64,000 bases of DNA from Oligoflexales bacterium (GCA_045106415.1 JBGCEP010000001.1:1-64000), one strand, 5' to 3'; counted from the first letter of the stretch, positions 19,930 to 39,508 are shown. Program-made: numbers and translations. Notes: generated by a model not told the origin, from the sequence alone.

Positions 19930-22824
19930 TTAAAACTGGCTGCCCACCGTCAGTTCAAATTGACCACGGCAATACCAATCACATTCTTTTGCTCGTGAAA
20001 AACAGATTCCTTCTTCAATACACCTTTTCGTTTGAGGTTCTTTCCAGGGCCATGCATAACCAAGGTTCACAGCACCTAACGGACTCAAAAAGTTCACAGC
20101 AACACCATATGAAAGATAATGCCGACTTAATAAATAGCCAGGTTTCCATAATAGTTCTGAAAACGAATAGTTAACATTATCTTCCATCGAATATATTCTC
20201 TCACGGTCATCACTTAAACCCACAGTTTGTGAGAGCTCTCGACCAAAACGCTCTACTTCCTGATCAGAGAAAAAGACATTCCCACTATCAAGAAAAAAAG
20301 AACTGCCCCAAAGCTCAGATAATTGAATACGGGCTTCCGTTCGAAACAACGATCTTTTGGCGCCGCCAATAACTTGTGGAATTTCATCATCAACAGGAAC
20401 AAACTCTCCTGACTCTCCTTGCTCTCTCACCTGCGTCCTAATATAAGGGCCCAATTGATGCTCAAATCCTCTTACTCGGCCGGAACCACCAGCAAACAAC
20501 CGTAATGTTGTAGGAAGAATATCAACATCACCCATCCAGTTATATGCTGAGAGCGCACCACTCACACTCCATACAAACTTTGGTAACACTTCATAAAACC
20601 ACGCAGCAGATAATGACCAGAAACCGAAACGAAAATCACTTCCCCAAGCTGGATTTGACAAACTCATTTGTGCTGACAACACACCTCCTTTTGTTGTCCA
20701 GCTAACATCATCTCTGAGGTCAAGCTTACCTCTCACTCCAATATCGGCAATTTTCGCATTTCCAGAAGAAATTGCCAAAAGCTGTTCTTTAGAGCCTCTA
20801 TCTCGCGTAATTTGATACGCATAATAAAGACCGATTTCTGAAGAGGGATCATTCAACCAAATTTTATGGTTTAAGGCCATCTCTCCTGTTGTTGAAATTT
20901 TCCAAAATTCATCAGCAACTTCTTTATGTGAAAGGGAAAGTTGGCCATCAATAGGGTAGTCCAAAAGATAGGGTTCCACGTATCCCAGACTTATTTTCTT
21001 ACCCAGAAGACTCCGACCTCGTTCATCACCTCTTTGGTCAACAACTTCTTGGTTCAGCTCTTGGCTCAATTCGCCACGCAAGCTCACCGTTCTTGCTCGC
21101 CCACCAATATTTTTATAAGTCCCTTCAAATCCGTACAACAAACCACGGCGGATATGATAACCCGGCCCGAAACGAACATCGCCAGGATCACTCTCTTGAA
21201 CCTGGATAGTGACATCTAGCTCATTAGGTTTCATCGCTAGAACGCCATAACGAGTAGGTGTAATTTGTACATAACGAAAAAGGCCTAAACCAATAAGAGC
21301 TGCCCGCGATTCTAATATATTTTCAGGGTTATAAAAATCACCACTCTTAAATCTCAATTCTCGACGCACAACACTTTCTTCTGTACGAATAAGACCTAAA
21401 ATACGAATCGAACCAACATAAACACGCACACCAGGATCAACCTTAAAAACAACAACTGTTTCAATCCGCTGCCCTCCGAACCTATGTTTTAATACTGTCG
21501 AAACCGTTGTTTTTAAATAACCAAGATTAATCAATTCTCGACGCAACTCCGTTTCTGCATCAAGTAGAGCTGTACGGTCAAGAGCACTTTGTTTTTGAAC
21601 TTTAAAATGCTTTTGTAACGGCAACCCATCAAAACCTTCTATCTTTGCGTCTTCTAAAACATAACGAGGCCCTTCATCGATTAAGATAACAACGTTAGCT
21701 GAAGCCGTATTTTCTTCTCGTGTAATACGAGGAGGTCGAATTTTCACATTCCAATAACCTTGACGTCGATAAAACTCCTTTAAAGACTCAACTCCTTCAT
21801 TAAGATCATCTCGATTTAAAGCAATACTGCTTTCCCAGACGCTTTGAAGCCCCATAACATCAATCATCTCTTTTCTTGAAAATTCAATCCCACCCTCAAA
21901 TTGAATATCACCCAATGTGTAGCGAGCCCCTAAACGGATCACAAACGTATGCCGAACAGTTTGATCGTCTGGGCGTGAAGTTTGAGGTCCCGTCACTTGA
22001 ACATCTTCATACCCTTGATTCACATAAATGCGAGTTACTTCTGATGCTATGGACTCAGGTTCAATAAGGGCTGGATCAAGCTCATTCAATGCATCATCGC
22101 GAAAAATCTGATCCACAGAAAGAGATGTTCGCTCTTGACGAAACTCCACCTCAACTCTGACACCAAGCTCGCCTTCCACTCGAACATAGCCTTTTGTTTT
22201 ATTTCTATCGAAAGACATTGGCCTTACATTCAAACGTACACGGTGATAACCCGCTGTCCTTAAATCTTGATCAAGGCGATCGACAGCACTTTGCACTTCT
22301 TTCAAATCACATAAACTTTTTTCTTTTAAAGAAAAAACTACACTATCAGGGAGTGGAAAAGGCAGAGAAATCGAGGCAATTTCACACGGAGCTCCTTCAT
22401 GGACAGTCACTTCATAATCCACAACATGGGGCTTAATCTTTTTAACAACAACACCTACTTTGACATGAGGGTACCCTAACAGTTGTAAAGCCTGGATCGC
22501 CGCACTCTGAAACTCTTCACGTACTTCATCATTTTCCACAACCCCAATAAACTGCCGCCTAACCCCTAGTAAAGATCTCCTCAAATCTCGAGTCACAGCT
22601 GTAATATGAATTTTACGGATCACAGAAGAAGGCTTTATTTCAGCAGACCATTTACCATCCTCATAATACAATTCACCAGAGCTCAAATTCTGCGATACAG
22701 CCTTTTGTCGCAAAAAAGAACTACCTTGTTGGGCATTTTGAATATGACTTTGAACTTCAGAAAAAATATTTTGAGTAAACATCAGACATAAAAGAAGAAC
22801 CCAAGTATTTTTTAGGTTATTCAA
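19930..22824 (-). CDS. tamA: Omp85 family outer-membrane protein (TamA/BamA-like, multiple POTRA domains)
   Basis: POTRA repeats (RTEESVVRREL, ESRAALIGLGLF), LFAGGSGRVRGF loop motif, C-terminal Phe; follows tamB; start estimated (ORF track 22899). Confidence 0.85.
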   Translation of the reverse strand: MNNLKNTWVLLLCLMFTQNIFSEVQSHIQNAQQGSSFLRQKAVSQNLSSGELYYEDGKWSAEIKPSSVIRKIHITAVTRDLRRSLLGVRRQFIGVVENDEVREEFQSAAIQALQLLGYPHVKVGVVVKKIKPHVVDYEVTVHEGAPCEIASISLPFPLPDSVVFSLKEKSLCDLKEVQSAVDRLDQDLRTAGYHRVRLNVRPMSFDRNKTKGYVRVEGELGVRVEVEFRQERTSLSVDQIFRDDALNELDPALIEPESIASEVTRIYVNQGYEDVQVTGPQTSRPDDQTVRHTFVIRLGARYTLGDIQFEGGIEFSRKEMIDVMGLQSVWESSIALNRDDLNEGVESLKEFYRRQGYWNVKIRPPRITREENTASANVVILIDEGPRYVLEDAKIEGFDGLPLQKHFKVQKQSALDRTALLDAETELRRELINLGYLKTTVSTVLKHRFGGQRIETVVVFKVDPGVRVYVGSIRILGLIRTEESVVRRELRFKSGDFYNPENILESRAALIGLGLFRYVQITPTRYGVLAMKPNELDVTIQVQESDPGDVRFGPGYHIRRGLLYGFEGTYKNIGGRARTVSLRGELSQELNQEVVDQRGDERGRSLLGKKISLGYVEPYLLDYPIDGQLSLSHKEVADEFWKISTTGEMALNHKIWLNDPSSEIGLYYAYQITRDRGSKEQLLAISSGNAKIADIGVRGKLDLRDDVSWTTKGGVLSAQMSLSNPAWGSDFRFGFWSLSAAWFYEVLPKFVWSVSGALSAYNWMGDVDILPTTLRLFAGGSGRVRGFEHQLGPYIRTQVREQGESGEFVPVDDEIPQVIGGAKRSLFRTEARIQLSELWGSSFFLDSGNVFFSDQEVERFGRELSQTVGLSDDRERIYSMEDNVNYSFSELLWKPGYLLSRHYLSYGVAVNFLSPLGAVNLGYAWPWKEPQTKRCIEEGICFSRAKECDWYCRGQFELTVGSQF

Positions 22825-25800
22825 ATGAAAAACGGAACCGTAAATTTGCTTCGACACTTTGTCCCGTTTGTGCATTCTCAACATCTCCACCGACATCATC
22901 TTCCGTGGTGCTATAATTCATCGATGTAGAAACACTTTCATGCAGAGGCATTTCTGCAGATACTGTCCAACCTTTTTGACCACCTCGAATCACAACATCT
23001 AAGTTCTTCGAAAGGTTGAAAGTCCCGTTTAACCGCGGGACAGGAAGACCTGCTTTATCAGGTAAAGTATCTATATACAGGTGAAAAAAGTTTTGACCTG
23101 TAAGTTCAGCAAGTGTTTCAAGTGGTTGCTCAAGTTGACTTAACACTAAGTTAAGCGCTTCACTACTAGCTGTAGATCCCACGACGCTACGCGTCCCACT
23201 TGGCAAGCTCCCCTTAGACAATAACACGATAATATCCAAAGGCGCTAAAACACTACCATCTTCTCTCGTTGGAGGGTCAGCAGTTAACTGGACATCCAAA
23301 TCTGCCACATTACCAGTTGCTGCAATTGTGACTTGATATGGAGCCACATCAGCAACAGCAATGACATCAAGCGTGGGTAATGAAGAAACAGTATCATCAA
23401 AAACAAGATCTCCGCGAATGAACTCAAATTCTCTTTTGTAGATCAACTTGCCTTTGTTAACATATACATGCCCATTTAACACCGGTTGACTATTCATTCC
23501 TTGAATCGTCAACTCTGCTGAAAGAATCATTTGTAAGTTTCTGTTCTGTACATAAATACTTTTATCTGCTTTCACAGCCACATCAAAACGGAACAATGGA
23601 TCTGCATCAACTTCATGCCCCCTTAGTCTTTGCTGTCCGACTGATTGGGCTATTTCATCCCTCAAATCAAACTGATGCGCTGTACGCCCTCTTTCCACTT
23701 GTATCTGACCTGTTACATCAAAAGGTCTTTTTCCACTAAGGTGCAGATCACCCGAAAAAGTTCCTTCAAAACTCTTAAGAACTGGCACTGTGAAAATAGC
23801 TTGCGCATGCTGAAAACTTAAATCCAAGTCACTCGAGGGGCCCTCTTCCCCTAAGTTCACACGCCCCGACGCAGTCACAAACCCTGATCCTTTGCGTGCT
23901 TTAAATGACTGTACTTGTAAAATATTTTGATCCAAAACAGCTTTAAACATGACCCCTCTAAACATCGGACGTAAAAAAGGAAGACTCAAACTGACTTCAG
24001 GATCTGTTTTTTCTGTCCAAATTACAGATCGGACCTGAAGATTTTCAAAAGGGCCAGTTAATGTCGTTTTTGCGTGAATAACTCCAGAACCACTCTCCAC
24101 ATAACGGCTCATATCAGCTACAGGAGCAAGCTCAACACGGGAGACAAGTTCAATACCAAAATGATCTGGAGGACGATGATTTGTGAGCTGAATACTGACC
24201 TGCCCCCCCGAACCCGCGATGACTAGAGGCTGATGATTCTGTGTTCTCCACCCCTGCTCAGAAAACACAATTCTCATAGGGTGTAGGTTCGTAGCTTCTA
24301 AAACTCTGTTTTCACTGCCTAGATCTCTAGCGTAATGAAGCTGTACACCTTCAACGGATAACAGCCCCTCAGAGGCCCACCACGATTTCAAGTTTCCTTT
24401 CATTTCCCAGTCTGCTGTTAGGTATGCAAAATTTCTAGGATCTTGATGAAAAGCCTCAGGAAAGCCGCTTCTCATGTCAAAACGGTCTAGCCTTACATAC
24501 CACTTGTATGGAAGGCCTGGTTCAAACAACTCCACGGCCATACGACCGTTTAAAGCTCGCCCTGCATGCTGCACCGTCAAGTCAAGGTGGCCACCTTCGA
24601 CAAACCCTGTCATTTGCCAATTTGCTGATAAAGCTCCATTTACAGCCAGCTCACTCACCTTTGCTTTCATTGTCCCTTGTAAACTTAAAAGATTCCCTTC
24701 TAAATTCACCTCAAAAGATGGCTGACCTACTAATTTCGCTTTTTTTGCAAAATCTCCCAAAAAGGGCAAACGTTCAAGCGTTGGCCCTCGACCACGACCT
24801 GAAACTTTTTTCGATTCAGCCTCAATTTTCACTTTCGAAGCAAGAGATAACCCTAATCGTTCCCACAGAGAATGATGAGGACCAAGGAAAGGTTGTAAAG
24901 TATGAGCAGGTCTTTCTAATGATACCTGACTAAAAACACCTAATGTGCCCAATTCAAAACGTAATGATTTTGAAGCCCAACCTTTTTTGGTTCCTTGAAA
25001 TTCAAAATGAAAATCGTCGCAAAAATAATTTTCTTCTGTAAAAACTTCTCGGCCTGAAGCTTCAATCTTTCCTGTCATTGCCAATGGAAAAAGTAATGGA
25101 CCCTTCACATCAAGTTTTGCTGAAACAATAGAAGCCATCACAGGCAATTCAACCCAGTGTGCAAGCCCCCTATATGTCGGTTCAGGAAGATGAAATACAT
25201 TAAGTTTTCCCGATAACCATAAATCCTTAATACGCAAAGAACCCACAGAGGAATCATAATGCCCGCTTGACCAACGACCTTTTAAATTTCTCCATGATAA
25301 AAGATCTTCTTCAAAAGAAAATTCACTCGACCAGCTTCCTAAATCTATCCCAGAAATAATAGAGTCCTGAAATTTTAAGGACCCATCAACACGAACTGGG
25401 TGCTCAACATTTCCATGCACATGAAAATCTATCTCACCAGCTCCACTCAATGGAGCTGGAAGATATGCAGCAAACAGGCCTGGTCCAAGATCTTGCATCT
25501 GAACTTTAACATCCATTTTTTTGTTATATTCTACAAGTCCATTCAACGTAAGATATGTTGAGGAATCAGGATCAGGATCATGACCCTTCGCTCCAAAGGT
25601 CTGACATTGTGCTGTCGTTTCACCAAACTGAAAAGAGGAGCTGTCTGCATGAAAATCAAGATTAACATCACACTCTGGAGCAAGCCCTAAACCAAATTTC
25701 TTAATTTCTTTAAAATCAATTTCTTTCATTTTTAAATGCGATGAAGCATATAATTCAAAAGGTTCCATTTTTCCATGAATCAAGACATCTTTGTCGTCAA

Positions 25801-26971
25801 GCTGATGAAGATTCGCGTCAAACACATGAAAATCAACCTGAAGAGCATCCATTAATGTTGACAGACGAATCCCTTGAGGGGAGGCATGAAACCGAAACTC
25901 ACCAAGACCTTTTGTTTCAATCACTCCATTTATATCAAGGGTATTCTTCCCATCTACAGAAACTTTTAATTGCCTTAGTTTTAATTCATTATCGTAAAAA
26001 GATAACCCTCCACTCACGTCATGAAGATAAAATCGGTCTAAATACGCATCACTCACATGAAATCGGCCATCAATTGTAAGTTGAGATGCTTCTTGATCTG
26101 TTGCTGTTAAAACTTCGACACGAGCATCAATTTGAGCTTGACCACGCGTGGTTCCAATATCTAACCAAGACCCTAAAATAGATAAATTGCCGACTCCACG
26201 TATATCATTTGCAATCAGAAATCCTTGATCTTTACCACCTGTTGTATGTTCTAACTTTCCTTGAACATCCAACCTTGGTGCTTTCAATTCCCACTGCCCT
26301 TTCCCTGTCCCATCATAGTGAATAAGTCCTTCTGCAGAAACGGAAGCTCCTTCCACCATCGATGCTTCTTCTGTTTGCATATGAAAATGCTCAGACCGTA
26401 AAATATACTTTAAACCCTCGGATGAAAAAGCCAGTTCTCCAGAAAGTTTTTTTGTTAAAAAAACATACCATTCTCCTTCTTTTCTGTTTTCTTTATCATG
26501 TGGAGTTTCAAAGGAGAGCTCTAAGTGATCAAGATAAATTTTATGAATAGGAAGCAGAATTGGTTTAAAAGGTTCTTCTTTTATAGCGTTTTTTGAAGAT
26601 GGTGTCTCGTTATCTTGAAGCAATGGCTTTTGATGATAGCTTACACCATCGATTGTTATATCCAAAAAATGCGGACTTCCCATCGCAAGAGCCCACCAAA
26701 CGATGGAGACAGAAGATTTTTCAATAGTGACAATTTTTTCTTTTTCAGAAAAAAGAGACAAATGCGCTACTTCAAACTTAAATGGGAAAAAACGGAAATG
26801 AATATTTTTAAATTGAACTCCTAAACCAATCTGAGGTTCAATTTCTTTGGCGACAATACCTCGAATAACCTGTTCTGTTGGTTGTGAATTCAATATAAAA
26901 TGAAAAAATGTATGCAAACCTATAATTAAGGCGCTGCCAATAAAAAATTTTTTCCATAAACCACGGTTCAT
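22817..26971 (-). CDS. tamB: TamB/DUF490 AsmA-like translocation and assembly module protein
   Basis: 1384 aa, N-terminal TM anchor, beta-rich, C-terminal ..ANLRFRFSFE; adjacent to the Omp85 gene. Confidence 0.85.
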   Translation of the reverse strand: MNRGLWKKFFIGSALIIGLHTFFHFILNSQPTEQVIRGIVAKEIEPQIGLGVQFKNIHFRFFPFKFEVAHLSLFSEKEKIVTIEKSSVSIVWWALAMGSPHFLDITIDGVSYHQKPLLQDNETPSSKNAIKEEPFKPILLPIHKIYLDHLELSFETPHDKENRKEGEWYVFLTKKLSGELAFSSEGLKYILRSEHFHMQTEEASMVEGASVSAEGLIHYDGTGKGQWELKAPRLDVQGKLEHTTGGKDQGFLIANDIRGVGNLSILGSWLDIGTTRGQAQIDARVEVLTATDQEASQLTIDGRFHVSDAYLDRFYLHDVSGGLSFYDNELKLRQLKVSVDGKNTLDINGVIETKGLGEFRFHASPQGIRLSTLMDALQVDFHVFDANLHQLDDKDVLIHGKMEPFELYASSHLKMKEIDFKEIKKFGLGLAPECDVNLDFHADSSSFQFGETTAQCQTFGAKGHDPDPDSSTYLTLNGLVEYNKKMDVKVQMQDLGPGLFAAYLPAPLSGAGEIDFHVHGNVEHPVRVDGSLKFQDSIISGIDLGSWSSEFSFEEDLLSWRNLKGRWSSGHYDSSVGSLRIKDLWLSGKLNVFHLPEPTYRGLAHWVELPVMASIVSAKLDVKGPLLFPLAMTGKIEASGREVFTEENYFCDDFHFEFQGTKKGWASKSLRFELGTLGVFSQVSLERPAHTLQPFLGPHHSLWERLGLSLASKVKIEAESKKVSGRGRGPTLERLPFLGDFAKKAKLVGQPSFEVNLEGNLLSLQGTMKAKVSELAVNGALSANWQMTGFVEGGHLDLTVQHAGRALNGRMAVELFEPGLPYKWYVRLDRFDMRSGFPEAFHQDPRNFAYLTADWEMKGNLKSWWASEGLLSVEGVQLHYARDLGSENRVLEATNLHPMRIVFSEQGWRTQNHQPLVIAGSGGQVSIQLTNHRPPDHFGIELVSRVELAPVADMSRYVESGSGVIHAKTTLTGPFENLQVRSVIWTEKTDPEVSLSLPFLRPMFRGVMFKAVLDQNILQVQSFKARKGSGFVTASGRVNLGEEGPSSDLDLSFQHAQAIFTVPVLKSFEGTFSGDLHLSGKRPFDVTGQIQVERGRTAHQFDLRDEIAQSVGQQRLRGHEVDADPLFRFDVAVKADKSIYVQNRNLQMILSAELTIQGMNSQPVLNGHVYVNKGKLIYKREFEFIRGDLVFDDTVSSLPTLDVIAVADVAPYQVTIAATGNVADLDVQLTADPPTREDGSVLAPLDIIVLLSKGSLPSGTRSVVGSTASSEALNLVLSQLEQPLETLAELTGQNFFHLYIDTLPDKAGLPVPRLNGTFNLSKNLDVVIRGGQKGWTVSAEMPLHESVSTSMNYSTTEDDVGGDVENAQTGQSVEANLRFRFSFE

Positions 26972-27833: not shown

Positions 27834-28772
27834 TCATGACTTCCAGTTCCAGCTTCGTTTCATCCTTGAGTAAACACCATCTACTGCCATTAGAGATCTT
27901 TCTGCTTCTGTTGAGCGACCTTGAGCAAAAAATATTTTAGCTTGTGCGACAGCACATGATTCAGTTTGAACTCCACGATTAAGTAATGTTAAAAGTAATT
28001 CTTGCGCTTTACTCAACTCACCTAAAACTAATAAACATTGAACAAGATCAAATAAAACTGCCGTTGTATGATTAAAAGAAACAAAAGCGTTCTTAAAAAG
28101 TTTTAAAGCGACTTCAGGAGACCCAGCTTTGATGTAATGTTCTCCGAGAACAATCAAAAGACCTAAATGGCTCGGATTCTGACTGACACACTGAAGCAAT
28201 AACTTTTCGGCCGTTGCAAATTGATTTTTACGCCTTAATAAAGCAGCGTAAGGAGGAACAATAATATCCAACAATACTTGCTCTTTAATAAACTTTAAAA
28301 AAACAGCCTCAATCTGGTCATAATTGCGCGGCTTCCAATTTTGATACATCATTTGTCGCAAATTAAGGTACGGCTTTACGTCCCACATTTGAATCAAACT
28401 CTTAAATGCAGGGTGAAATCGCGCTGGAGTCAACGGCATAGGAAGCACAACCCCTGAACTTAACATCGACTTTAAAGCTTTTTCTTCAAATATATGGTGT
28501 TGAAGAAAAAAAGCTAAAACTGGAAGAGTTCTTCCAAATGGGTCTGACAACAACCTTCTGGCAATATAACTCGCTGGAAGCTCAATCTGATCTAGAATAA
28601 TAACAAGAGAAACCTCCCCCATACGGGCCAGACGAGAAACCTCAGTAACGGAATCGGTCACACTATGCACAGACCAACCCATAGGCCTAAGAAGCTCTCT
28701 TAAAAGCATATAAGAACTTGAATTATGACTCACCAAGACAGCTGAAGGAGCTGACCATGTCGACGGATTCAT
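27834..28772 (-). CDS. TPR protein with degenerate N-terminal receiver-like domain
   Basis: N-terminal REC-like pattern (LRELLRPMGW, VIILD, PVLAF, MPLT); C-terminal TPR helices (AEKLL..NP..LGEHY..ALKLF). Confidence 0.65.
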   Translation of the reverse strand: MNPSTWSAPSAVLVSHNSSSYMLLRELLRPMGWSVHSVTDSVTEVSRLARMGEVSLVIILDQIELPASYIARRLLSDPFGRTLPVLAFFLQHHIFEEKALKSMLSSGVVLPMPLTPARFHPAFKSLIQMWDVKPYLNLRQMMYQNWKPRNYDQIEAVFLKFIKEQVLLDIIVPPYAALLRRKNQFATAEKLLLQCVSQNPSHLGLLIVLGEHYIKAGSPEVALKLFKNAFVSFNHTTAVLFDLVQCLLVLGELSKAQELLLTLLNRGVQTESCAVAQAKIFFAQGRSTEAERSLMAVDGVYSRMKRSWNWKS

Positions 28773-28864
28773 ATCCCCACCTAGATATTCTCTCCGTGAA
28801 TCGTAACATCACAAGACCTTTACCGCGTTCGGCAAATATCGTTACATAGAGGTTTAATCTTTCA

Positions 28865-30004
28865 TTAAAGTTTCTCAAAGAGCTCAATCGCTTCTGTGAC
28901 AGCTTGAAAAGAACCACAAACTGCAAATTCTTTAATTCCTTGCCTCTCGAGCAGAGCCCACTGCTCAGAAAAATTTGCCTTATAGTTTTTTCGGGTGCAA
29001 CGTGCAGACCGCGTTGAAAATGGCAATAAAAATGATGCCACTTGTTTTAACGATTCTAAAATTCCTGCTTCATCTTTATCATCTAAAATCGAATATAGCA
29101 CAGGGATTTTATGTGTTTTATTTTTTAAATAATCAGCAAACACCTTAGCTGCAGCAGGATTATGACAAACATCAATCCAAATTTTTCTTCCATTCCTTTG
29201 AAGTTTCTCACACCTTCCACGATAAAAACTAGCAGATGTCGATGCTTCAAATTGATCAGAACACACTGTATAACCCAATAGTTCAACAGCATGACAAGCC
29301 AAATCATAACTTTTTTGCAGATGCACAGGAAGCGTTAAAACAGAAGGTGGTTTTAAATATACGTCTGTATGAATCAAATCAAAACCAATACGGCGTCTTT
29401 CTTGCTCAAGCACTTCATTAAGCTCAGCCTTTTTTTCACCCCACAAAAGTGGTTTTTCAAGGCGTGCAATTCCAAGCTTTTCTTTTGCAATATCAGCAAT
29501 ATGATTCCCTAACCATTCTTGATGATCTAAATCGATCGAAGTCACTATTGATATATCTGCATCTAAAGCGTTTGTCGCATCAAGCCTCCCCCCTAACCCC
29601 ACTTCCCACACAACGACTTCACAGCCACTATTTTTAAATAACCCCATACCAATAAGTACAGAAACTTCGAAAAAAGAAAGTTCTTCATAAACATGATCTG
29701 GAAGAGATTTTTTAAGTTCTTTCCACACATTCTCGACTTCTGAAATCGTAATCACCTCATTATTCACTTGAAATCGTTCCGAAAAACATGACAAATGAGG
29801 TGAAGTGAAAATTCCTATCCGAGCCTGAGACTGTAGTAATTTCCATAAGTAAGAGACAACAGTTCCTTTACCATTCGTACCTGCTACTAATATATTTATA
29901 TGCTCATTAGGTTTCCACCATTTTAGCGCTTCACGCACAGTTTCTATCCCTGGGCGTATATGCGTTGAACGTTTTGAAAAAAGATCTTCGACCCATGAAG
30001 ACAT
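28865..30004 (-). CDS. folC: Folylpolyglutamate synthase/dihydrofolate synthase
   Basis: VAGTNGKGT, FTSPHL, EVGLGGRLDATN, IDLDHQEWLG, DVCHNP. Confidence 0.93.
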   Translation of the reverse strand: MSSWVEDLFSKRSTHIRPGIETVREALKWWKPNEHINILVAGTNGKGTVVSYLWKLLQSQARIGIFTSPHLSCFSERFQVNNEVITISEVENVWKELKKSLPDHVYEELSFFEVSVLIGMGLFKNSGCEVVVWEVGLGGRLDATNALDADISIVTSIDLDHQEWLGNHIADIAKEKLGIARLEKPLLWGEKKAELNEVLEQERRRIGFDLIHTDVYLKPPSVLTLPVHLQKSYDLACHAVELLGYTVCSDQFEASTSASFYRGRCEKLQRNGRKIWIDVCHNPAAAKVFADYLKNKTHKIPVLYSILDDKDEAGILESLKQVASFLLPFSTRSARCTRKNYKANFSEQWALLERQGIKEFAVCGSFQAVTEAIELFEKL

Positions 30005-30200
30005 CTCACACCTCACCAGTTAAGATGCCATTCTTTTAACAAAAACAAAAAGAACCGGATAGTTTCTTATGACGAATTTAAAAAAACATAAACTCTATTC
30101 TACTTGTACAGGAAAACTCTCAAGGTACATTAGCATCCATTTTCTCAGAGGATCTGGAACTTGATCATGACTATTTGGCATAAGAGAACCATTGCACATA

Positions 30201-31184
30201 TAACATTGGCTACACTTATTTACTCAACACCTTCATAGCCACACAAACAGCATCATAAATAGAGTCACATCCATCTATGAGAATTTTTCGTATTTTTGTT
30301 TTAACTTGATGCCACTTGTGTTCGATAGGATTGAGATCTGGACTATATGGGGGGGGAAGATATAGAACTTCTGCTCCATAATCTTGAGATATTTGAACTA
30401 TATCTGAGGACTTATGAAATGAAGTATTATCAAACACAATAACTGTATTTCCATCCAAATGTGGGATTAAAACCTTCTCAAGATACGCATTGAAAACCTC
30501 TGCTGTACAACTTCCTTTAAATACAAATGGAGCAATAATTTCGTTATGGTTGTTGAGTGATCCAATGATATTAACAGCTTTATGTTGTGAACTTTCTTTT
30601 AAACCATGGAGCCTGGAACTTTTATGACTCCATCCATGTTGACAGGATTCATTTTTCTTAACGCCACACTCATCGAGATAAATAATGTTTTTATCACTTT
30701 TATTATTTATTTCCTTTTGAAAGTCACTCCGATTTTTATCGCAGCGATTTTTGTATCCAAATGTTTTTTTATTTGTAAAACCGATAAGCCGCAAGTATCG
30801 ACGAATACTCCGTGGAGAAATATCCCCCCCAAGCTTGAGCCATTTCTTCGGAACTTCTATCAGGTTTTTCTTCTACAAATTTTTCCAAGTCTTGAATTTT
30901 ACCTGGTCTCTATTTACGTTTCCGTGGTTTCAGAGAGCCAGTCTCTGTCATTTTCTTTTTCCAATTATAGATTGTTTTACGAGCGATATTGATAGCCAGA
31001 TTCTATCGCATCAATCACTTTACTCTGCAAGTCTAATGAGTATAACTTAGGAGTGTTAATTCCAAACATTTGATAAAACTAGGAATAACATACTAAACTT
31101 ATAAGATAAAATCACGTCTCTCGAATTCAAGTTATAAGGGGAATAGACCCACTCTGGGTGAGCAAATAAAATCAGCCAATGCTA
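30201..31184 (-). mobile_element. IS630-family element with frameshifted transposase
   Basis: Terminal IRs TATAACATTGGCT (30199-30211) / AGCCAATGCTATA (31174-31186) including TA targets; YSLDLQSKVIDAIESG N-terminus; DDE motifs YLDECG, VFDNTSFH, YLPPPYSPDLNPIE. Confidence 0.88.
30216..31050 (-). pseudogene. IS630 transposase pseudogene
   Basis: DDE half intact (30216-30794); HTH half broken by a frameshift and a stop, no ATG found. Confidence 0.8.
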
Positions 31185-31542
31185 TATCACAATAAATGAC
31201 CGACGCTGTTAATGTTCTGCAAGTCATCGCCCGTGGCAACATCTTTATATAAAACGTTAAATTTCAAACCGAATCAGTATAGTAGGGATTTATCTTTCTT
31301 TTATTTGCAAATTTTTTAGGTCAATATGGAATAAAGATAACTCTAGGGTCGTTTTTTAAATCCAGCTGAAAACATAGGGGTATAGAGGCGGTACTCATGA
31401 AACTTGTTAAGTTTTGAGTATTGTTTGAGTGAAGGTCACTTGATCGCAATGAGAGCAGCCTATATGTTAGCCTTTTCGAAATTTCTAAAGATATGAAGAG
31501 TGATTCAAAAATGTCAGAAACTTTAAAAGCATGGATGAACAA

Positions 31543-32421
31543 ATGAACTGTGATGTTTCGTGCTCTCAGCAGAATCAAGCACAAGTATTGGCAGGGAGTG
31601 CTCCCTCTCAAAAAAGACAATGGTTTATTGAAATACCTCAGCCGTGGCCGAGACAGGTTTTAGCAAGCTCTTATTTGCATGCTCAGGTTTTACTAGCCTT
31701 GCAGCACGCTGTTCGTTCTAAGATCTCAGTATATGGATTTTGCGGAGAAAAAACTCGTGTTGGTGCTAAAAAAATAAGACTTATAGATGCATGGAGTGAG
31801 GGAAATGGAGAAGGAAAGCATCAGCATTATGAGATTTCAGCTCAGGAATCTGTAGAGTGGTTTCAAAGTCTTCTTCATAATCCAGAGGGAGTGGCGTCTT
31901 ATCGGAAGGACCAAGTGGGTCGAGATGTTTTTATTTGTACACATGGCCAAAGAGACCAATGCTGTGGAGTTTTAGGTGAAGAAGTATATGTTAAATATAG
32001 CCATTTAGCTTCAAATGATCTAAGGATTTGGAAGGTGAGCCATCTCGGTGGTCATCGTTTTGCTCCTACATGGTTGGAATTACCAGAAAAATTGTGGTGG
32101 GGACGAAGTGATTTTGACGCAGTTGTGACTCGGACTGGGCAACCGTGGAAGTCTTTACGAGGACGTTCAATGTTATCTCCTCGAGCTCAAATTTTAGAAA
32201 GAATGATGCTAGAACAATACGGATGGCCTTGGCTGGATGTTGCAAAAAATGCTTCTTATCAAGAAAGTGGAAATGATATTGAAGTCACAGCTCCAGGATT
32301 GAAAGCGTATGCAGAAATTTTATGTCTTGAAAGTTTTCAACCTGTGAGTTGTGGGCAGGCTGCAAAAAGCGTCAAAGAGTACGAAATTGTAGAGTGTCAA
32401 ATAGGGAGTTTTGAAGTTTGA
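31543..32421 (+). CDS. Sucrase/ferredoxin-like (thioredoxin-fold 2Fe-2S) protein
   Basis: VFICTHGQRDQCCG and SHLGGHRFAPT motifs; start estimated (ORF track 31531). Confidence 0.88.
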   Translation: MNCDVSCSQQNQAQVLAGSAPSQKRQWFIEIPQPWPRQVLASSYLHAQVLLALQHAVRSKISVYGFCGEKTRVGAKKIRLIDAWSEGNGEGKHQHYEISAQESVEWFQSLLHNPEGVASYRKDQVGRDVFICTHGQRDQCCGVLGEEVYVKYSHLASNDLRIWKVSHLGGHRFAPTWLELPEKLWWGRSDFDAVVTRTGQPWKSLRGRSMLSPRAQILERMMLEQYGWPWLDVAKNASYQESGNDIEVTAPGLKAYAEILCLESFQPVSCGQAAKSVKEYEIVECQIGSFEV

Positions 32422-32456
32422 TTTTTTAATAAAATTAATCGGTTATAGATTTTTGT

Positions 32457-32483
32457 TAAAATTCCTGGAAGAAGCGCCGAAAT
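32457..32483 (+). promoter_or_regulatory. sigma28 (FliA)-type promoter
   Basis: TAAA-N15-GCCGAAAT, near consensus. Confidence 0.7.
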
Positions 32484-32489
32484 GCAAAT

Positions 32490-32638
32490 CGGGGTTGGCT
32501 CTTATCGCTCGGGTGCGGGACAGAGCCAAGGGAGTTTGTGTAGAACAACCTAATCTGTGAAACAGAACACGCGTCGTGAGCCTGTTCAACAGCCGCGAGA
32601 TCACCTAAAAATATTCGCAGATCACCCCCCGTTTTTTT
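32490..32638 (+). ncRNA. Candidate structured sRNA or 5' leader
   Basis: GC-rich segment after the sigma28 promoter; stem TTGGCTCT/AGAGCCAA, TCTGT/ACAGA hairpin, GGGGT/ACCCC closing helix, T7 tract. Confidence 0.4.
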
Positions 32639-32656
32639 GCATGATAGAGGTTTTTT

Positions 32657-32875
32657 ATGAAGTTACCAGGTCTTATTGATACAGTAAGAGAGTTCTCTCT
32701 TAATGATCATGAACGTGTTTTGAAAAGTGCTCTCCGAGGTGAAAAAGAAGGGGTAGCGCCACCTATGAGGGATCCAGATCCAGCATTTAAGCTTGAATTA
32801 TCAAATCATGCAGCAGAACATCATGATGTTTCTGCGACGGAAACTCTAGATGATATTGGTCTTGATGTGGAATAG
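32657..32875 (+). CDS. Small acidic hypothetical protein
   Basis: AGAGG RBS, 72 aa, downstream of the sigma28 promoter. Confidence 0.6.
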   Translation: MKLPGLIDTVREFSLNDHERVLKSALRGEKEGVAPPMRDPDPAFKLELSNHAAEHHDVSATETLDDIGLDVE

Positions 32876-33273
32876 ATAATTTCCATTTTACTGGAAACTT
32901 ATTTAACGCAAAGTGAATGCGTATATGTAAAGTTCTTGTCACTGTAAAGTTCTCGTTTTTTTTATTGTTGCAATGGATTCAATGCTTGGGTTTAAAGATT
33001 TCATGCCTCCTAGAGTGTGAAATTTATTTTCTCATTGTTTAATTTTATGCATATAGCATGAGATGCTTTTATTTGCGTATTAAGAATTTCGAGAAGTTAA
33101 TAAATACTTATTTTAAAGAAATATCTGATAGATATGAGTTTGTAGGTAAGACTATGGCTTTCTATATCAATCAATAGATATTAAGTTTCATAGTTTGTTT
33201 TTTTAAAAATGAATGATTTTCATTTTTAAAAAGAATAGCGTAGGATACCTCCATAGATTTTTTGAGGTCCCGT

Positions 33274-34230
33274 ATGAAAATTTTTTTTCTTGTTTTTTTT
33301 CTTGTTTTTTCGAGTATAGTCCAAGCTGATGAAGGAGAATATTCTCCAGGCAGAAGTAAAAGTTTACTGACCGCTATTCAAAATCAACGGCACCATGAGA
33401 TACGAAAACTTCTTCAGCCCGCGTTGCTAAGAAGGCCTGCGGATCCTAACTTTTCAATGTATAATTATGAGCAAGAATTTCAGGCGTTTCATGCAACTCC
33501 GCTGTTATTGGCTGCGCAAAATTCAGATAGAGAATCAGTTGAGATTTTATTGGCTGCAGGTGCTGTTCCTGTGATTTTCGATATAAGGTCACATATTTTA
33601 TTTTCGCTTCTTAAAAAGAAAAATATGGAAAGCATTCAAGTTGAAATCTTGAGGCGTTTGTACCCTTTTTTAAAGAATAAATATCATGATGAAGCATGGA
33701 TTTTAGGGAAATCAGCACAAGCTCCGGGAACACTCATAAACTTTGCTTTGCGTAAGAAAAAATTTGTGTTTGTGCAGGTTTTACTTGAATTGGAGGATCG
33801 TTATGTCGCCTCCAGTGATGATATACAAATAGCTGTTCTAGGCGGAGCCCCAGCTTATATTGTTGAAAAACTTTCTTTAAGGCAAGAGAATCAAGATCCA
33901 GTTGATGTATCAGTTTTTTCGTGGCTTTTAAATAACCGAACCGCAACTCCGGGAGAAATAGAGCGCTCTCTTAAAGTTTTACAGATTTTAACGAGACATA
34001 ATGCTGAATTGTTGCCTCACACTGTGGAAAGTCAGTCTTCAATTGCGATGTTTGCGGCAGTTATGAGTTCGGATGATACGTTTCGATGGCTTCTTCAGTT
34101 TATAGATGACGGTGTTGAGGGAGGTTGGTGGCCAGCACAAATGGTGTTGAAAGTTTTAAAACAACAAGAAAGAACTCAACTCACTCAAGAATATTCAAAA
34201 GTGTTGGCTGAAAAAGGTTTGAAAAAATGA
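33274..34230 (+). CDS. Exported ankyrin-repeat protein
   Basis: Signal peptide MKIFFLVFFLVFSSIVQA; TPLLLAAQNSDRESVEILLAAGA ankyrin consensus plus degenerate repeats. Confidence 0.75.
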   Translation: MKIFFLVFFLVFSSIVQADEGEYSPGRSKSLLTAIQNQRHHEIRKLLQPALLRRPADPNFSMYNYEQEFQAFHATPLLLAAQNSDRESVEILLAAGAVPVIFDIRSHILFSLLKKKNMESIQVEILRRLYPFLKNKYHDEAWILGKSAQAPGTLINFALRKKKFVFVQVLLELEDRYVASSDDIQIAVLGGAPAYIVEKLSLRQENQDPVDVSVFSWLLNNRTATPGEIERSLKVLQILTRHNAELLPHTVESQSSIAMFAAVMSSDDTFRWLLQFIDDGVEGGWWPAQMVLKVLKQQERTQLTQEYSKVLAEKGLKK

Positions 34231-34996: not shown

Positions 34997-35037
34997 CTTC
35001 CTATGACCCCTCATTTACGAGGTCGTAGGAGAAAGTT

Positions 35038-37389
35038 ATGAGAATCAATAAACAAAAAGGGGCAAGTCCTATTGTTATGGCCTCTTTGGTGGCAGTTCTT
35101 GGTTTTATTGCAACTGAGGGTGCGAGAACTTTTTCCAAGCAAAGTCAGGATGTGTCCCGCAGAGCTGTTGATGGTGTGCAAATGCAAGCAGCAAATGAAT
35201 CTTCAATGGAGCTTTTATCCCAACTTGTAGGCGCAACCGTTTTAAAGTTGGACTCAGGGAGCTCGAAGTTTTCATTGGGGGATGGTTTAGGTGGGAAATT
35301 TAAAGTCGATAGAACTCCGAGTGTTGATGGCTGGTCGTTAGATGCTCAAGGAGCCTTTGTGACTCAGGCGTGTCTATCCTCAAATCTTGGTGTTGATTCG
35401 AGTCTTATTTTTGGTGATGATAAAGGAACAACCTGGCTGACAGGGCATGACTGTCCAAAAACATCCATTGTGACAACAACAATTGTCCCTAGAAGTAGTG
35501 TTGATGCAGATAAAGTCTCAGGCGCTCGTGCTAATAGTTATGCAATTGTGGATACAAGCACTGTTAACAGTGAAGGGCGAAAATTAAATCGTTTTGCTCG
35601 CTTGACACTGCCAGAACCAACGATTCAATGTGATGTTGTGAGTGATGACAATAGTGAGCACTGCCAAATTGATCATTGCCCTTATATGAAGCCAGTTTTA
35701 AATAATAAAACTGGTGATGTTTTATATAAAACGGATGCTTCTGGTGCTTTAGTGCCTCTTTTGCAGCCTAATGAGAATTTTATCTCAACGATAAGAGTTC
35801 CCTCAAAGATGTTGCCAACATCTTTGAATGGGTTGTCGGTGAAATATACTCCTGGCCGTGATCAAAAACCAACACAACTTGCTAGTTTTTTGAATAGTGC
35901 ATTTAAGCCGGGTAGAATTAATCCTTTTGATGGTGTTCAAGGAGTGGGTGGGGAGCTTCAATCACAAGGTGCTCAAGATTTAAAAAGAGTTGGATCTTAT
36001 ATTGAAATTGCTGTCCCAAATAAAGCTGCAGCTATAGATGCTAGCAAGTTGCTAGTTTTTGAAGGTTTTTTGCAGGATGGAAGCAGAACGAGCTATGGTA
36101 GCAATGCCCGAGGCTGGAAAACTAATACGCCTTTTGACGATAAGAGGTACCGTTCAAATCTGCAAAATGCTTGTGCAGCAACTCTTTATCGGCCATGGGG
36201 ATTAAGAAGCCCTAGTCCATATCCAGATTTTTGTGCTCGAGCCATTTTAACTTATGCTTACAATACTTATACTTATTCTGCAATTCGAAAATGTCGTTAT
36301 TATGGTCCAGCATTAAGAATGAGCAGTGACCCTAGTGGCATGAAAAATTGGTATGCGACCGAGCAAAGGCATTCTCAAACAGACTGGGTCGCATCATCGA
36401 AAACAGAAGAAGGATATACTACCGTATCGAGTTCTTTAAAACCTTATGTTGACTCTCAAGTTCATCACGATTTTGATAATAGTGATCCTCAAGGTTTTTC
36501 TTTACAAAGGCATGACTTCAGTGATGTCTTAGTTGGGGAATTATCTGTTTTAGAAGTGAAAAAGTTTGACAATCCGGATTATGTTGTTGATGAAAAAGGA
36601 AAACCTGTTGATAATAATGTTCCTCAATTTTTATGGAAAGAGAGAACTTTAAATAGAAGTTGGGACGCAAGTTGTAGCCAAAGAGACCTGAAAGATAATG
36701 AAAACCCTCCAAACTTTAAGCCACCTACAAATGTGCTTGATAAGTGCTTTTATATTGAATATCAAAATGCTGGAAACCGTCTTGAGTGTACTCGTCGCGT
36801 GAGTGCTATTAATTGCCGAAACGGTAATGGCTGTTTTACAGCAGATACTCCTGTGATGATGGCAGATAGATCTATGAGGATGATCTCAGATATTCAAGAG
36901 GGTGAAAAAGTCTTCAACCCTGTGACGCAAGTGGGGGTCAAAGTCGTAAGTGTGACAAGTGGTCCTCAAGAACGAGAAATGTATAGAATTACAACTTCTG
37001 GAGAAAAGACTGTTACAGCAACTTGGAACCACCCATTTCAAACACCAGACGGTTTTTTTAGAGCATATCAGCTTGAAGAAGGTGATCGTGTGATGGATGC
37101 CAGAGGTTTTTGGCAAGATGTTGTAAAAATTGATGAAGTGGCTTATCAAGAAGGAGAAGTTCGTCAGGTTTGGAACTTAACCTTGGAGGGTCCGTCTTTT
37201 GGTAATCCTGGTTTTGTGGCAGCAAGGCAGTTTGTAGCAAACGGCTTGGCAACAGGTGATTATGTGATTCAAGAGTCTAATCTGAGAGAAGTGAACCAAC
37301 AGCTTAAGAATGGGCAACAGCTTTTAAAAGTCAGTGGAGGAGGCTCAATGTCTTTTGAGCGCCCACTTGAATTTGAATGGGCTCGTTAA
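35038..37389 (+). CDS. PilX-like prepilin-leader surface protein with C-terminal Hint domain
   Basis: KQKG|ASPIVMASLVAVLGFIA leader; Hint motifs G|CFTADT (Cys at 36832), TWNH, VWNL, FVANGLATGD. Confidence 0.8.
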   Translation: MRINKQKGASPIVMASLVAVLGFIATEGARTFSKQSQDVSRRAVDGVQMQAANESSMELLSQLVGATVLKLDSGSSKFSLGDGLGGKFKVDRTPSVDGWSLDAQGAFVTQACLSSNLGVDSSLIFGDDKGTTWLTGHDCPKTSIVTTTIVPRSSVDADKVSGARANSYAIVDTSTVNSEGRKLNRFARLTLPEPTIQCDVVSDDNSEHCQIDHCPYMKPVLNNKTGDVLYKTDASGALVPLLQPNENFISTIRVPSKMLPTSLNGLSVKYTPGRDQKPTQLASFLNSAFKPGRINPFDGVQGVGGELQSQGAQDLKRVGSYIEIAVPNKAAAIDASKLLVFEGFLQDGSRTSYGSNARGWKTNTPFDDKRYRSNLQNACAATLYRPWGLRSPSPYPDFCARAILTYAYNTYTYSAIRKCRYYGPALRMSSDPSGMKNWYATEQRHSQTDWVASSKTEEGYTTVSSSLKPYVDSQVHHDFDNSDPQGFSLQRHDFSDVLVGELSVLEVKKFDNPDYVVDEKGKPVDNNVPQFLWKERTLNRSWDASCSQRDLKDNENPPNFKPPTNVLDKCFYIEYQNAGNRLECTRRVSAINCRNGNGCFTADTPVMMADRSMRMISDIQEGEKVFNPVTQVGVKVVSVTSGPQEREMYRITTSGEKTVTATWNHPFQTPDGFFRAYQLEEGDRVMDARGFWQDVVKIDEVAYQEGEVRQVWNLTLEGPSFGNPGFVAARQFVANGLATGDYVIQESNLREVNQQLKNGQQLLKVSGGGSMSFERPLEFEWAR

Positions 37390-38036
37390 GAGGTTGTGAT
37401 CTGATGCTGTGTTTAAAAAACCTTAAAGAAAAGTCTAAAAAAAACTTTTCTTTAAGGTTTTTGTTGAGGGTTGCAATTTTTTTCCTTAGCTCTCCAGTGC
37501 AAGGAGGGTATCATTGGGTATTGCCTTTCTGTGCCAATGATCACAAAAATCAAACTTTTCTTTTCAGTGAAAATGCTTGTGGTTTGCAAGAGTGTCGTGT
37601 TTTAACGAGTGGTGATCAGGGTTTAAATAGAGCAGTCACAAATACTTTAGGTACTCATAATACAGCACATTTGATTGCGAATAATGAAAAAAATAAAGAA
37701 AAAATACATGTCATAAAAAAGTTCAATGATCAGAAAAGTGAAGAGAAAGATTTTTTATTTGCGCAGATGAAACTGCCAACACTTGATCTTGCGTGTGAGA
37801 AGACAAGTGATTGTCATGCGGTGGGCATTGGTGTGTCCCCATGCGGTGGCCCTATTCGTTACGAAGTATATTCTTCTTTAAGAAAGAACGAGCAAGATGC
37901 TGAAGATTTTCAAAGAAAAATTGAGCAGTACCAGATTCTGATGCAAAAGCGCGCTGTGGGGTCTTTTGGTGTGTGCATTATGGTGTTGCCTCCTCAGGTC
38001 TCATGTGTCGCGTCAGTGTGTCAGGTTGTTCATTAG
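37377..38036 (+). CDS. Hypothetical exported Cys-rich protein
   Basis: C-terminal CEKTSDC..IGVSPCGGPIRYEVYS..CIMVLPP.VSCVASVC disulfide domain; start uncertain. Confidence 0.6.
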   Translation: MGSLRGCDLMLCLKNLKEKSKKNFSLRFLLRVAIFFLSSPVQGGYHWVLPFCANDHKNQTFLFSENACGLQECRVLTSGDQGLNRAVTNTLGTHNTAHLIANNEKNKEKIHVIKKFNDQKSEEKDFLFAQMKLPTLDLACEKTSDCHAVGIGVSPCGGPIRYEVYSSLRKNEQDAEDFQRKIEQYQILMQKRAVGSFGVCIMVLPPQVSCVASVCQVVH

Positions 38037-38612: not shown

Positions 38613-39062
38613 ATGAAACAAGTTTTTGTGTTTTTGCTCTGCTTTTTGAGTGTTTCTGGGTTTTCACAGGACACTGAAAAGTCTGTTGCACAAAGTTCGT
38701 CGTATGAAGTGACTGTGATGTTCACAGGTTATGCTGATTTTGAGTGGCTTCATTACGGTGTGTCTGATCATGTTCAGGTTGGTGTGGGTTCCTCCGTGTT
38801 TGGATCTCTCTTGAATACGTTTGCTTACGGTTCTTATCCTCCGTTGTTTCTTGATGCTGCATATTTTGTGTCTGGTTATCAGAACTCATCATGGTATGGA
38901 AAAATGGTATTCCCGGCATACAGTGCTGGACCGTTTTATATGATGCCGCCGACAACTGTAGGATACCGCTGGAAGTTTGATGATGGCTTCTTGAATCTTG
39001 GTGTGATGGCTGTGAATGACTCTCACGTCGTTCCAGAGATATCTTGGGGGGTGGCTCTATGA
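38613..39062 (+). CDS. Small exported outer-membrane beta-barrel-like protein
   Basis: Signal peptide, alternating aromatic strands (VGYRWKF, ISWGVAL end), AAAGGTG RBS. Confidence 0.65.
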   Translation: MKQVFVFLLCFLSVSGFSQDTEKSVAQSSSYEVTVMFTGYADFEWLHYGVSDHVQVGVGSSVFGSLLNTFAYGSYPPLFLDAAYFVSGYQNSSWYGKMVFPAYSAGPFYMMPPTTVGYRWKFDDGFLNLGVMAVNDSHVVPEISWGVAL

Positions 39063-39508
39063 AACAGGTTTTGTTACTGGTGCTGGCTTTGTTCTCACAT
39101 AAAGTGTGCGCTGTTGATTTAGATGCAGATTATGGTGTGGAAGTCTATATTGTTGAAACATTGTTGCAATCTTTAGGGAGCTCCGGAGGCGGCGAATTTG
39201 GTGGTCGCTATTTGAATCACCAAGGTTTGCGTTTTGTTGGAAAAGAAGGTGTTGTCAAAGAAGCTCACTTTGGGATGAAGGGTCTCACGATTTGCGATGA
39301 AGGCAAGTATGGTGTCCGTGTCACAGATCTTAAGAGAGTTGGAGAGATTGATAAGACTGTTGGTCAATGTGTGAGATGGTGTAAGCGCTGGAGTAAGAAT
39401 CGTCCATATTTCGTCAATGGTGTGTGCTGGAATATGGTTACAGCATTCCTTGATGATCATGAGACTGAACATCCTGCTGCTGACAAAGGCAAATGTCAGA
39501 TCATGTGA
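39059..39508 (+). CDS. Exported permuted papain-fold (PPPDE/DeSI-like) peptidase candidate
   Basis: Signal peptide MKQVLLLVLALFSHKVCA; HQGLRF..EAHFG..Y..NGVCWNM His-before-Cys order; ATGA coupling to the upstream gene. Confidence 0.55.
   Translation: MKQVLLLVLALFSHKVCAVDLDADYGVEVYIVETLLQSLGSSGGGEFGGRYLNHQGLRFVGKEGVVKEAHFGMKGLTICDEGKYGVRVTDLKRVGEIDKTVGQCVRWCKRWSKNRPYFVNGVCWNMVTAFLDDHETEHPAADKGKCQIM

Follow-up and report, generated by a model that had tools for sequence, protein, structure and literature searches.

Can a Hint domain that lacks the terminal His-Asn pair still process the protein that carries it? This question is raised by a gene located at positions 35038..37389 (plus strand) in a 64,000-nucleotide stretch of DNA from an Oligoflexales bacterium (GCA_045106415.1, JBGCEP010000001.1:1-64000), hereafter the window. 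The gene encodes a protein of 783 residues, followed by a TAA stop codon, with a pilin-like leader at its N-terminal end and a Hint domain close to its C-terminal end. A first-pass annotation had presented this protein as a pilus-associated adhesin with a Hedgehog-like Hint domain. Our analysis leads us to propose, with moderate confidence, that it is an exported, disulfide-rich protein resembling the minor pilins devoid of Glu5 (GspK/PilX style), and that its C-terminal Gly-Asp Hint domain forms a thioester at Gly598 and cleaves itself off.

The landmarks on which the first-pass annotation relied were all found in the sequence where it had placed them: G598↓CF (the arrow marks the predicted scissile bond), T662-x-x-H665, a block G ending in TGD instead of HN, and a tail of 42 residues. 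The predicted scissile site, G598↓C599-F600 (36829..36837), was assigned from conservation among relatives, and the Hint domain spans residues 599-741 (36832..37260; this and the following features are on the plus strand). Block B, T662-W-N-H665 (37021..37032), is conserved among relatives and provides the residues at intein positions B:7 and B:10. N713, in V-W-N-L (37174..37176), was assigned by eye to the place of the usual intein Asp at F:4, and R730 (37225..37227) occupies the site of a His which is conserved in the family ahead of block G, the window copy differing from the family at this position. Conservation and alignment by eye placed T739-G740-D741 (37252..37260) where the x-His-Asn end of block G is expected. 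The tail, residues 742-783 (37261..37386), begins with the conserved Y742-x-x-Q745 and ends in FEWAR. According to the accessible part of PMC4031507, Cys1, Thr B:7, and His B:10 are the residues behind the N-S acyl shift, Asp F:4, which is usual in inteins, assists the N-terminal reactions, and His G:6, Asn G:7, and the block F His drive C-terminal cleavage.

The presence of a Hint fold, also proposed at the outset, was supported by hidden Markov models (HMMs), by a sequence match in the PDB, by an AlphaFold2 (AF2) model, and by Foldseek. The window protein matched the Pfam model PT-HINT (PF07591) with E=6.1e-07 and 30.2 bits, against a cut-off of 27.7, over profile positions 8-113 of 137. The margin is small, and most of the 66 relatives that were scanned fell under the cut-off of this and every other Hint model; no Pfam model is dedicated to this subclass. 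The NCBIfam model intein_Nterm was matched above its cut-off (E=3.7e-06). The Pfam models Vint, Hom_end_hint, Hint (Hog), and Intein_splicing matched below theirs, the Hint/Hog model (PF01079) reaching 16.7 bits versus a cut-off of 29.7 and covering residues 596-665 only. Hint_2, which we take to represent the B-type bacterial intein-like domains (BILs), gave no match at E<=1 with the window protein and weak sub-threshold matches with some relatives. The best sequence match in the PDB was 2lwy, a BIL from Clostridium thermocellum, with E=1.1e-06 for the single sequence and 2e-13 for the family profile.

The AF2 model of residues 585-783, built with 29 aligned relatives, had a predicted local distance difference test score (pLDDT) of 87.4 and a predicted template modeling score (pTM) of 0.80. 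Foldseek returned 71 PDB matches to this model at E<=0.001, with Hint matches at a probability of 1.00, and all of the matches listed through rank 50 belonged to the Hint superfamily (BIL, intein, Hedgehog, and Vint). Among them were 6y75, which is BIL2 of the Tetrahymena BUBL locus (E=2.7e-11), the gp41-1 intein (target template modeling score, TM, of 0.90), 2lwy (TM 0.84), and Ssp DnaB. Hedgehog (1at0) came at rank 26 (E=3.2e-07, TM 0.77). As modeled, the fold is that of a generic Hint domain, nearest to BILs and mini-inteins and not specifically to Hedgehog. The qualification of the domain as Hedgehog-like therefore holds for the architecture of the protein, but neither for its sequence membership, given the PF01079 score, nor for the rank of 1at0.

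Conservation of the catalytic positions was evaluated in a family of relatives. Word-indexed searches returned 3 proteins with the whole protein, 3 with a 15-sequence full-length alignment (A3), and 12 when the Hint profile was compared with longer proteins. An exhaustive search of representative proteins returned 1116 sequences at E<=0.001, of which 314 also passed E<=1e-10 and 17 passed E<=1e-30. The family sample consisted of 150 listed proteins from these representatives and of P0002, 151 proteins in all, of which 149 matched the Hint query. A single Hint domain was located at the extreme C-terminal end in 138 of the 149 proteins, and the conservation counts given below refer to these 138 relatives; the other 11 carried two to four Hint matches.

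Around the cleavage site, Gly at -1 and Cys1 were each found in 137 of the 138 relatives, Arg at -5 in 133, and Phe2 in 126. In block B, His B:10 was invariant (138/138) and position B:7 was occupied by Thr (131) or Ser (7). The near-invariance of Cys1, Gly-1, Thr or Ser, and His (137-138/138) indicates selection on the N-terminal chemistry. Position 713 was Asn in 137 relatives, as it was in the canonical tandem-Hint relatives described below. At position 730, His was present in 127 relatives, including P0002, and Arg in 6, the window protein and P0003 being among the latter.

The end of the domain displayed a comparable level of conservation, with Gly at position 740 (135/138), Asp at position 741 (134, and Glu in 2), and Gln745 (135). 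The residue at +1 was Leu (109), Tyr (15), Phe (6), or Trp (3), together accounting for 133 of the 138 relatives, and a nucleophile at this position was essentially missing from the family. In the window protein, block G reads FVANGLAT-G740-D741, and GLATGD can be aligned by eye with the GVAVHN of canonical relatives; Gly740 and Asp741 therefore stand where inteins have His G:6 and Asn G:7. Judging by these alignments, the His-Asn pair is not simply lost but swapped for a strictly conserved motif that reaches four residues beyond the end of an intein, and the signature of the subclass, as deduced from the sequences, is R-x4-G↓C-F ... T-x-x-H-P-F ... V-x-N-L ... H ... A-[N/D]-G-x-x-[T/S]-G-D-[L/Y]-x-x-Q. 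The terminal G-D-type ending was missing from 10 of the 11 multi-Hint proteins, and at least nine proteins of this kind end their repeats canonically (...V-H-N-K-G-G).

Some relatives form a group of their own. In P0021, P0024, P0035, P0078, P0098, P0104, and P0127, canonical Hint repeats, three or four in tandem, come after a signal peptide; each of them ends in V-H-N-K-G-G and runs directly into the next C-F. Those scanned against Pfam (P0021, P0024, and P0035) extend into a Tim44-like domain. The group resembles poly-BIL arrangements.

At the N-terminal end, the window protein begins with the basic leader MRINKQKG (residues 1-8; 35038..35061), whose last residue is a Gly at a prepilin-type position, processing at this position being a prediction. 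The leader is followed by an uncharged hydrophobic segment of 18 residues, ASPIVMASLVAVLGFIAT (residues 9-26; 35062..35115), delineated by alignments with relatives. Thus, the protein has the short leader ending in Gly and the stretch of about 20 hydrophobic residues by which pilins are recognized, and the residue at +5, by reading of the sequence, is not Glu. Among the 95 full-length relatives, defined by a Met start and at least 300 residues ahead of the Hint domain, 72 showed the corresponding pattern, in which a Gly is preceded by a polar residue and an uncharged stretch of 16 residues or more comes next, and none of these 72 had Glu at +5. A stricter leader rule was satisfied by 62 of the 138 single-Hint relatives. 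The hydrophobic segment is followed, at about residues 50-65, by a stretch conserved in the alignments of relatives, M-Q-A-A-N-E-x4-L-S-Q-L-x-G, and a low-confidence AF2 model of the full-length protein had one long helix at residues 11-63. The leader thus reads as that of a prepilin devoid of Glu5. Minor pilins of this type, GspK and PilX among them, sit at the tip of the fiber, where they cap or prime the pseudopili of type II secretion and type IV pili.

The region located between the hydrophobic segment and the Hint domain, referred to here as the passenger, comprises residues 27-598 (35116..36831) and ends in C593-R-N-G-N-G598. As announced in the first-pass annotation, it is a Cys-containing region of about 570 residues. 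It has 12 Cys, including those of an invariant C-x-x-D-H-C-x-x-M box (C209-C214), and alignment A3 indicated that these Cys are mostly kept in relatives. C599 is the sole Cys located after residue 598, and thus the only one outside the passenger. This distribution, as read from the sequence, fits an exported, disulfide-bonded protein. The passenger had no family match in Pfam or NCBIfam. A search of the ESM Atlas with residues 60-597 gave no usable feature match, all structural neighbors having a TM of at most 0.27, and comparison of the family profile with the PDB returned Hint structures only, with none for the passenger or the pilin-like N-terminus. The full-length AF2 model, based on three sequences, was poor (pLDDT 35.5) and uninformative on the passenger. 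The term adhesin, for which neither a family nor a fold provided support, was therefore a guess.

Gene neighborhoods were compared by scanning a genome collection, which provided four related loci in metagenome-assembled genomes labeled Oligoflexales (two), Deltaproteobacteria, and Pseudomonadota. In L001, L002, and L004, the homolog is located between two genes with classical G-x4-E prepilin-type starts, the motifs being G↓ASILE, G↓ASLLE, and G↓STIIE, respectively, for the upstream genes, and G↓TTLLE, G↓VSLLE, and G↓TTLIE for the downstream genes. In L003, the contig ends on the left side, and a prepilin-type gene is present downstream (G↓FSLME). Thus, the homolog adjoins prepilin-type genes in all four related loci. 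The flanking genes were orthologous across loci (36% identity, E=4e-63; 26% identity, E=2e-23). The pilin-type flanks and their orthology indicate that the family is tied to a three-gene pilin-like cassette. In two of the loci (L001 1624-5437 and L002 3236-6896), the cassette is preceded, in divergent orientation, by the same set of genes, encoding two unknown proteins and two periplasmic chaperones of the SurA/peptidyl-prolyl isomerase type. The pilin-Hint-pilin cassette may be under common regulation with helpers of periplasmic folding.

The window locus has a different organization. On its 5' side, the gene is preceded by genes for an ankyrin-like secreted protein and an Abhydrolase_2 carboxylesterase. 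The downstream gene (37404..38036, plus strand; the likelier start is the ATG at 37404, after GAGG at 37390-37393) encodes a Cys-rich protein with a signal-peptide-like start, which is not pilin-like, has no family match, and aligned poorly with the pilin-like downstream gene products of L002 and L004 (15-21% identity). The window copy is a stand-alone paralog.

We propose the following scheme. After export and folding, Cys599, aided by Thr662 and His665, would attack the carbonyl of Gly598 in an N-to-S acyl shift. The resulting thioester would be resolved, most simply by water, Asp741 being by its position a candidate general base. The Hint domain and the tail would thereby be detached as a fragment of 185 residues, leaving a mature protein of about 590 residues ending in ...C-R-N-G-N-G. 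In relatives, the protein would be made together with two prepilin-type proteins and would probably be part of the tip or priming complex of a pilus or pseudopilus. Formation and hydrolysis of the thioester are favored because the N-terminal catalytic set is intact and constrained, the +1 nucleophile is missing, and the positions of the C-terminal helpers are occupied by Gly740 and Arg730. Cleavage, the role of Asp741, prepilin processing, and incorporation into a pilus are what we infer from these observations.

Several points weigh against this scheme. Self-cleavage is, at each of its steps, a prediction. The presence of R730 instead of the family His, or of N713 instead of the intein Asp F:4, could lower the activity of the window protein, and the placing of Asp741 near C599 is an assumption based on its homology to block G of inteins. 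The family members without a pilin-like leader had Sec-type or lipoprotein-like signals, or were N-terminally truncated calls; since other members are exported by signals of the Sec or lipoprotein type, the Hint module is not specific to pili. Neither PF07963 (N_methyl) nor TIGR02532 nor PilX_N matched the whole window protein or its first 100 or 200 residues, the Pfam and NCBIfam pilin HMMs had no match in the N-termini of three relatives, and PilX_N matches were absent from the 66 scanned family members. The PilX-like character of the leader thus stands as a reading of its Gly-ending leader, its hydrophobic segment, and the lack of Glu at +5, but not as membership of an HMM family. The calling of the flanking genes as pilins combined motif reading with sub-threshold HMM matches (E 0.002-0.004 for N_methyl and 0.01-0.19 for TIGR02532). 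Finally, the 64-kb window contained no ORF (open reading frame) with a G-x4-E prepilin start, and no pilus gene was found there either. Association with a pilus is therefore supported by the related loci but not by the locus of the window.

The first-pass annotation had gone further in proposing that the new C-terminus might be ligated, as occurs in Hedgehog processing, the tail recruiting the nucleophile. The thioester at Gly598 would then be taken by a specific nucleophile, candidates for which are a lipid, a small molecule, a partner pilin, an amine of the envelope, or a group at the surface of a prey or host, and the passenger would become covalently attached, with help of the tail in recruitment. 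We consider this outcome unlikely. The architecture is Hog-like, with the G↓CF site, the terminal Hint, and neither a His-Asn pair nor a +1 nucleophile, and the conservation of an Asp in place of the active-site Asn (134/138), together with Q745 (135/138), points to a chemical role that was kept rather than to decay. In Hedgehog, an Asp acts as the general base by which the incoming nucleophile is activated, and Asp741 is by its position a candidate for such a role. The tail is predicted to be helical (residues 742-766 in the AF2 model, where the alignment is essentially that of a single sequence) and is moderately amphipathic (hydrophobic moment of 0.51, matched by 14 of 2000 shuffles). In the full-length subfamily, it retains a short F-x-x-F-like motif. 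Yet the tail is hydrophilic (mean hydrophobicity below 0), and a long tail is not a feature of the family: the segment that follows the Asp had a median of 16 residues in the 138 relatives (range 0-55), against 42 in the window protein, and reached at least 35 residues in only 15 of them. Its sequence is conserved only in the closest subclade (window, P0002, and P0003), in which it ends in FEWA[R/K]. The tail has little resemblance to a lipid-binding region, nor is it constant in the family, which weakens its proposed role as a recruiter of an adduct. In addition, the PF01079 match remained well under the cut-off and was confined to residues 596-665, and no lipid-related partner gene was conserved beside the homologs in the four related loci. 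The N-terminal pilin helix would also already hold the protein, so that a lipid at the other end would bring no obvious benefit. A related possibility, to which we give slightly less credit, is that the Gly-Asp Hint equips a subunit of the pilus tip with a single-use, self-contained ligase. The thioester at Gly598 would last until attacked by a nucleophile other than water, such as an amine or a hydroxyl on a partner pilin, on the envelope of the cell itself, or on a prey or host surface, and the C-terminus of the passenger would be welded to this target as the Hint is released.

Double cleavage or non-canonical splicing appears improbable. Here, Asp741 would cyclize and free the tail, the amine of which might attack the thioester, joining the passenger to the tail and excising the Hint domain. 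Precedents exist: the accessible part of PMC4031507 reports that some inteins with a terminal Asp or Gln are able to cyclize and cleave. BIL domains cleave at either end, and A-type BILs can splice in the absence of a +1 nucleophile, as stated in the portions available of PMC7765530 and PMC5874633. Furthermore, according to the former, B-type BILs, which have no C-terminal motif, still cut C-terminally by an atypical reaction, and both of their ends are cleaved. The statement of the first-pass annotation that a Hint domain deprived of the terminal Asn can form only the N-terminal thioester was thus too strong. By sequence, BIL domains are the closest relatives with a solved structure, and the conservation of the tail in the close subclade, including its FEWAR end, would make sense if the tail remained on the mature protein. 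However, the residues that assist cyclization are gone, since the penultimate His is replaced by Gly740 and the family His, in the window protein, by Arg730. The [L/Y]-x-x-Q motif is as conserved as the Hint core, and a helix starts at residue 742, which suggests that this region is part of the domain and not an extein. Most tails of the family, with 10-20 variable residues, are also improbable as cargo.

With just as little confidence, the Hint domain may be regarded as no longer enzymatic and as remaining attached to the protein in a structural, binding, or export-related capacity. R730, where 127 of the 138 relatives have His, and the lack of both the intein Asp F:4 and the His-Asn pair in the window protein are in keeping with such a loss. 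Retention of Cys1, Gly-1, and the Thr or Ser and His of block B in 137-138 of the 138 relatives and in the window protein is hard to explain without thioester chemistry, and the position of R730, assigned by eye, corresponds in inteins to a residue that assists the C-terminal and not the N-terminal reaction (PMC4031507, accessible part). Release of a C-terminal toxin by a polymorphic-toxin-type protein is very improbable, even though PT-HINT was the best Pfam match, just above its cut-off, since this match stops at profile position 113 of 137, short of the His-Asn end, the median length of the tails in the family is 16 residues, the position downstream is taken in relatives by a pilin-type gene and shows no conserved gene of the immunity type, and the anatomy of the window protein rules it out, the Hint being followed by 42 hydrophilic residues in which Pfam and NCBIfam detected no toxin domain.

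The window gene itself is preceded by a Shine-Dalgarno-like AGGAG (35027..35031, plus strand), located by direct reading of the sequence six bases 5' of the ATG. Its product is identical to P0001, which is present in public protein sets, and its nearest named homolog, P0002, is annotated only as 'Hint domain-containing protein [Oligoflexales bacterium]'. Minus-strand ORFs of 64-87 residues within 35038..37389 look incidental. A scan for promoters and terminators around the gene was uninformative, with 10 promoter-like sites for 8.9 expected.

Other features of the window were recorded. Downstream of the Hint gene, its strand also encodes three small secreted-looking proteins, none pilin-like and none of a known family (37404-38036, which is Cys-rich, 38613-39062, and 39044-39508). 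Just 5' of the Hint gene, 33262-34230 (plus strand) encodes a signal-peptide protein with weak matches to ankyrin repeats, and 7754-9031 (minus strand) encodes a protein with an IBR domain of the RBR-ubiquitin-ligase type (IBR_2, E=6.3e-09); the IBR and ankyrin-like domains, of eukaryotic type, hint at a lifestyle touching eukaryotic cells. On the minus strand at 19930-26971, an Omp85/POTRA protein (989 residues) adjoins a TamB-like protein (1384 residues), a TAM-type outer-membrane assembly pair. The region at 12001-16000 is a low-GC island (0.28 versus about 0.40 elsewhere) with a 579-residue ORF without family (12610-14349, minus strand) and an Acyl_transf_3 gene (14673-15761), and may be acquired DNA or a surface-polysaccharide region. 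Within 28000-33000, the GC skew changes sign near 30-31 kb, with a cumulative minimum at about 30 kb. Gene orientation also flips there, from the minus strand up to 30794 to the plus strand from 31531, and a DDE_3 transposase-like ORF is located at 30216-30794. A replication origin at the skew switch was considered but not supported: DnaA-box-like 9-mers numbered 24 for 17.9 expected, 12 of 100 shuffles reached 24, and none was located in 27.1-35.5 kb.

Should the predicted cleavage occur, the tip proteins of pili or pseudopili would gain a step of post-translational self-maturation. A natural Hint domain without Asn and with Asp would also become available for comparing modes of thioester resolution, which matters for the engineering of inteins and for the question of how Hedgehog-type processing arose. 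If ligation were to occur, it would represent a new, sortase-independent mechanism of covalent attachment in diderm bacteria of the Bdellovibrionota/Oligoflexia type, and a bacterial counterpart both of the cholesteroylation of Hedgehog and of the thioester adhesins of Gram-positive pili.

A literature search, in which most subscription journals were lacking, listed no paper describing a Hint domain in these bacteria or on a protein resembling a pilin. The class of chemistry is known; what appears to be undescribed is the Gly-Asp subclass, together with its fusion to exported proteins of pilin-like build. Hog domains, exemplified by 1at0, share with the window protein a passenger, a G↓C-F junction, a terminal Hint with TxxH, the lack of both His-Asn and a C-extein nucleophile, and the same predicted first step. 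At the place equivalent to Gly-Asp, they terminate in a motif of the S-C-Y type. The window protein differs from them in falling below the PF01079 cut-off, in resembling 1at0 less than BILs and mini-inteins by fold, and in having a short, hydrophilic, and variable tail in contrast to the sterol-recognition region of Hog. Class 1 mini-inteins (gp41-1 and Ssp/Npu DnaB) resemble the window Hint by their fold, the Cys of block A, the TxxH of block B, and the shape of block G, F-V-A-N-G-x-x-x-(H-N). The differences are the Gly-Asp at G:6/G:7, the Tyr at +1, and the Asn at F:4 (nomenclature of PMC4031507, in its accessible part), and the window Hint has no host protein to rejoin, being followed by 42 residues only. 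Proteins of the GspK/PilX class have in common with the window protein the short leader ending in Gly, the long uncharged N-terminal segment, and the lack of Glu at +5, and the related loci add prepilin-type neighbors in four cases of four. The window protein differs from this class by the absence of HMM membership, by a far larger body (about 570 residues), and by its C-terminal Hint.

BILs provided both the closest solved relative by sequence (2lwy) and the top match by fold (6y75), the reference domains being the A-type BIL of Clostridium thermocellum (2lwy), BIL2 of the Tetrahymena BUBL locus (6y75, 6tmm), and the B-type BILs. In the accessible sections of PMC7765530 and PMC5874633, BILs reside in exported bacterial proteins that are not conserved, and they carry out cleavage instead of splicing; these sections describe neither a terminal Hint with a short tail nor a fusion to pilin-like leaders, as found in this family. 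The same portion of PMC7765530 defines B-type BILs by the presence of all intein motifs but the C-terminal one, a definition which the window Hint fits, having blocks A and B and no His-Asn. A-type BILs, in contrast, keep the His-Asn (PMC7765530, same portion) where this family has Gly-Asp-[L/Y]-x-x-Q. Beside inteins, Hedgehog processing domains, and BILs, the family represents a tightly conserved further subclass of Hint domains, located at the extreme end of exported proteins, most of which start like minor pilins devoid of Glu5.

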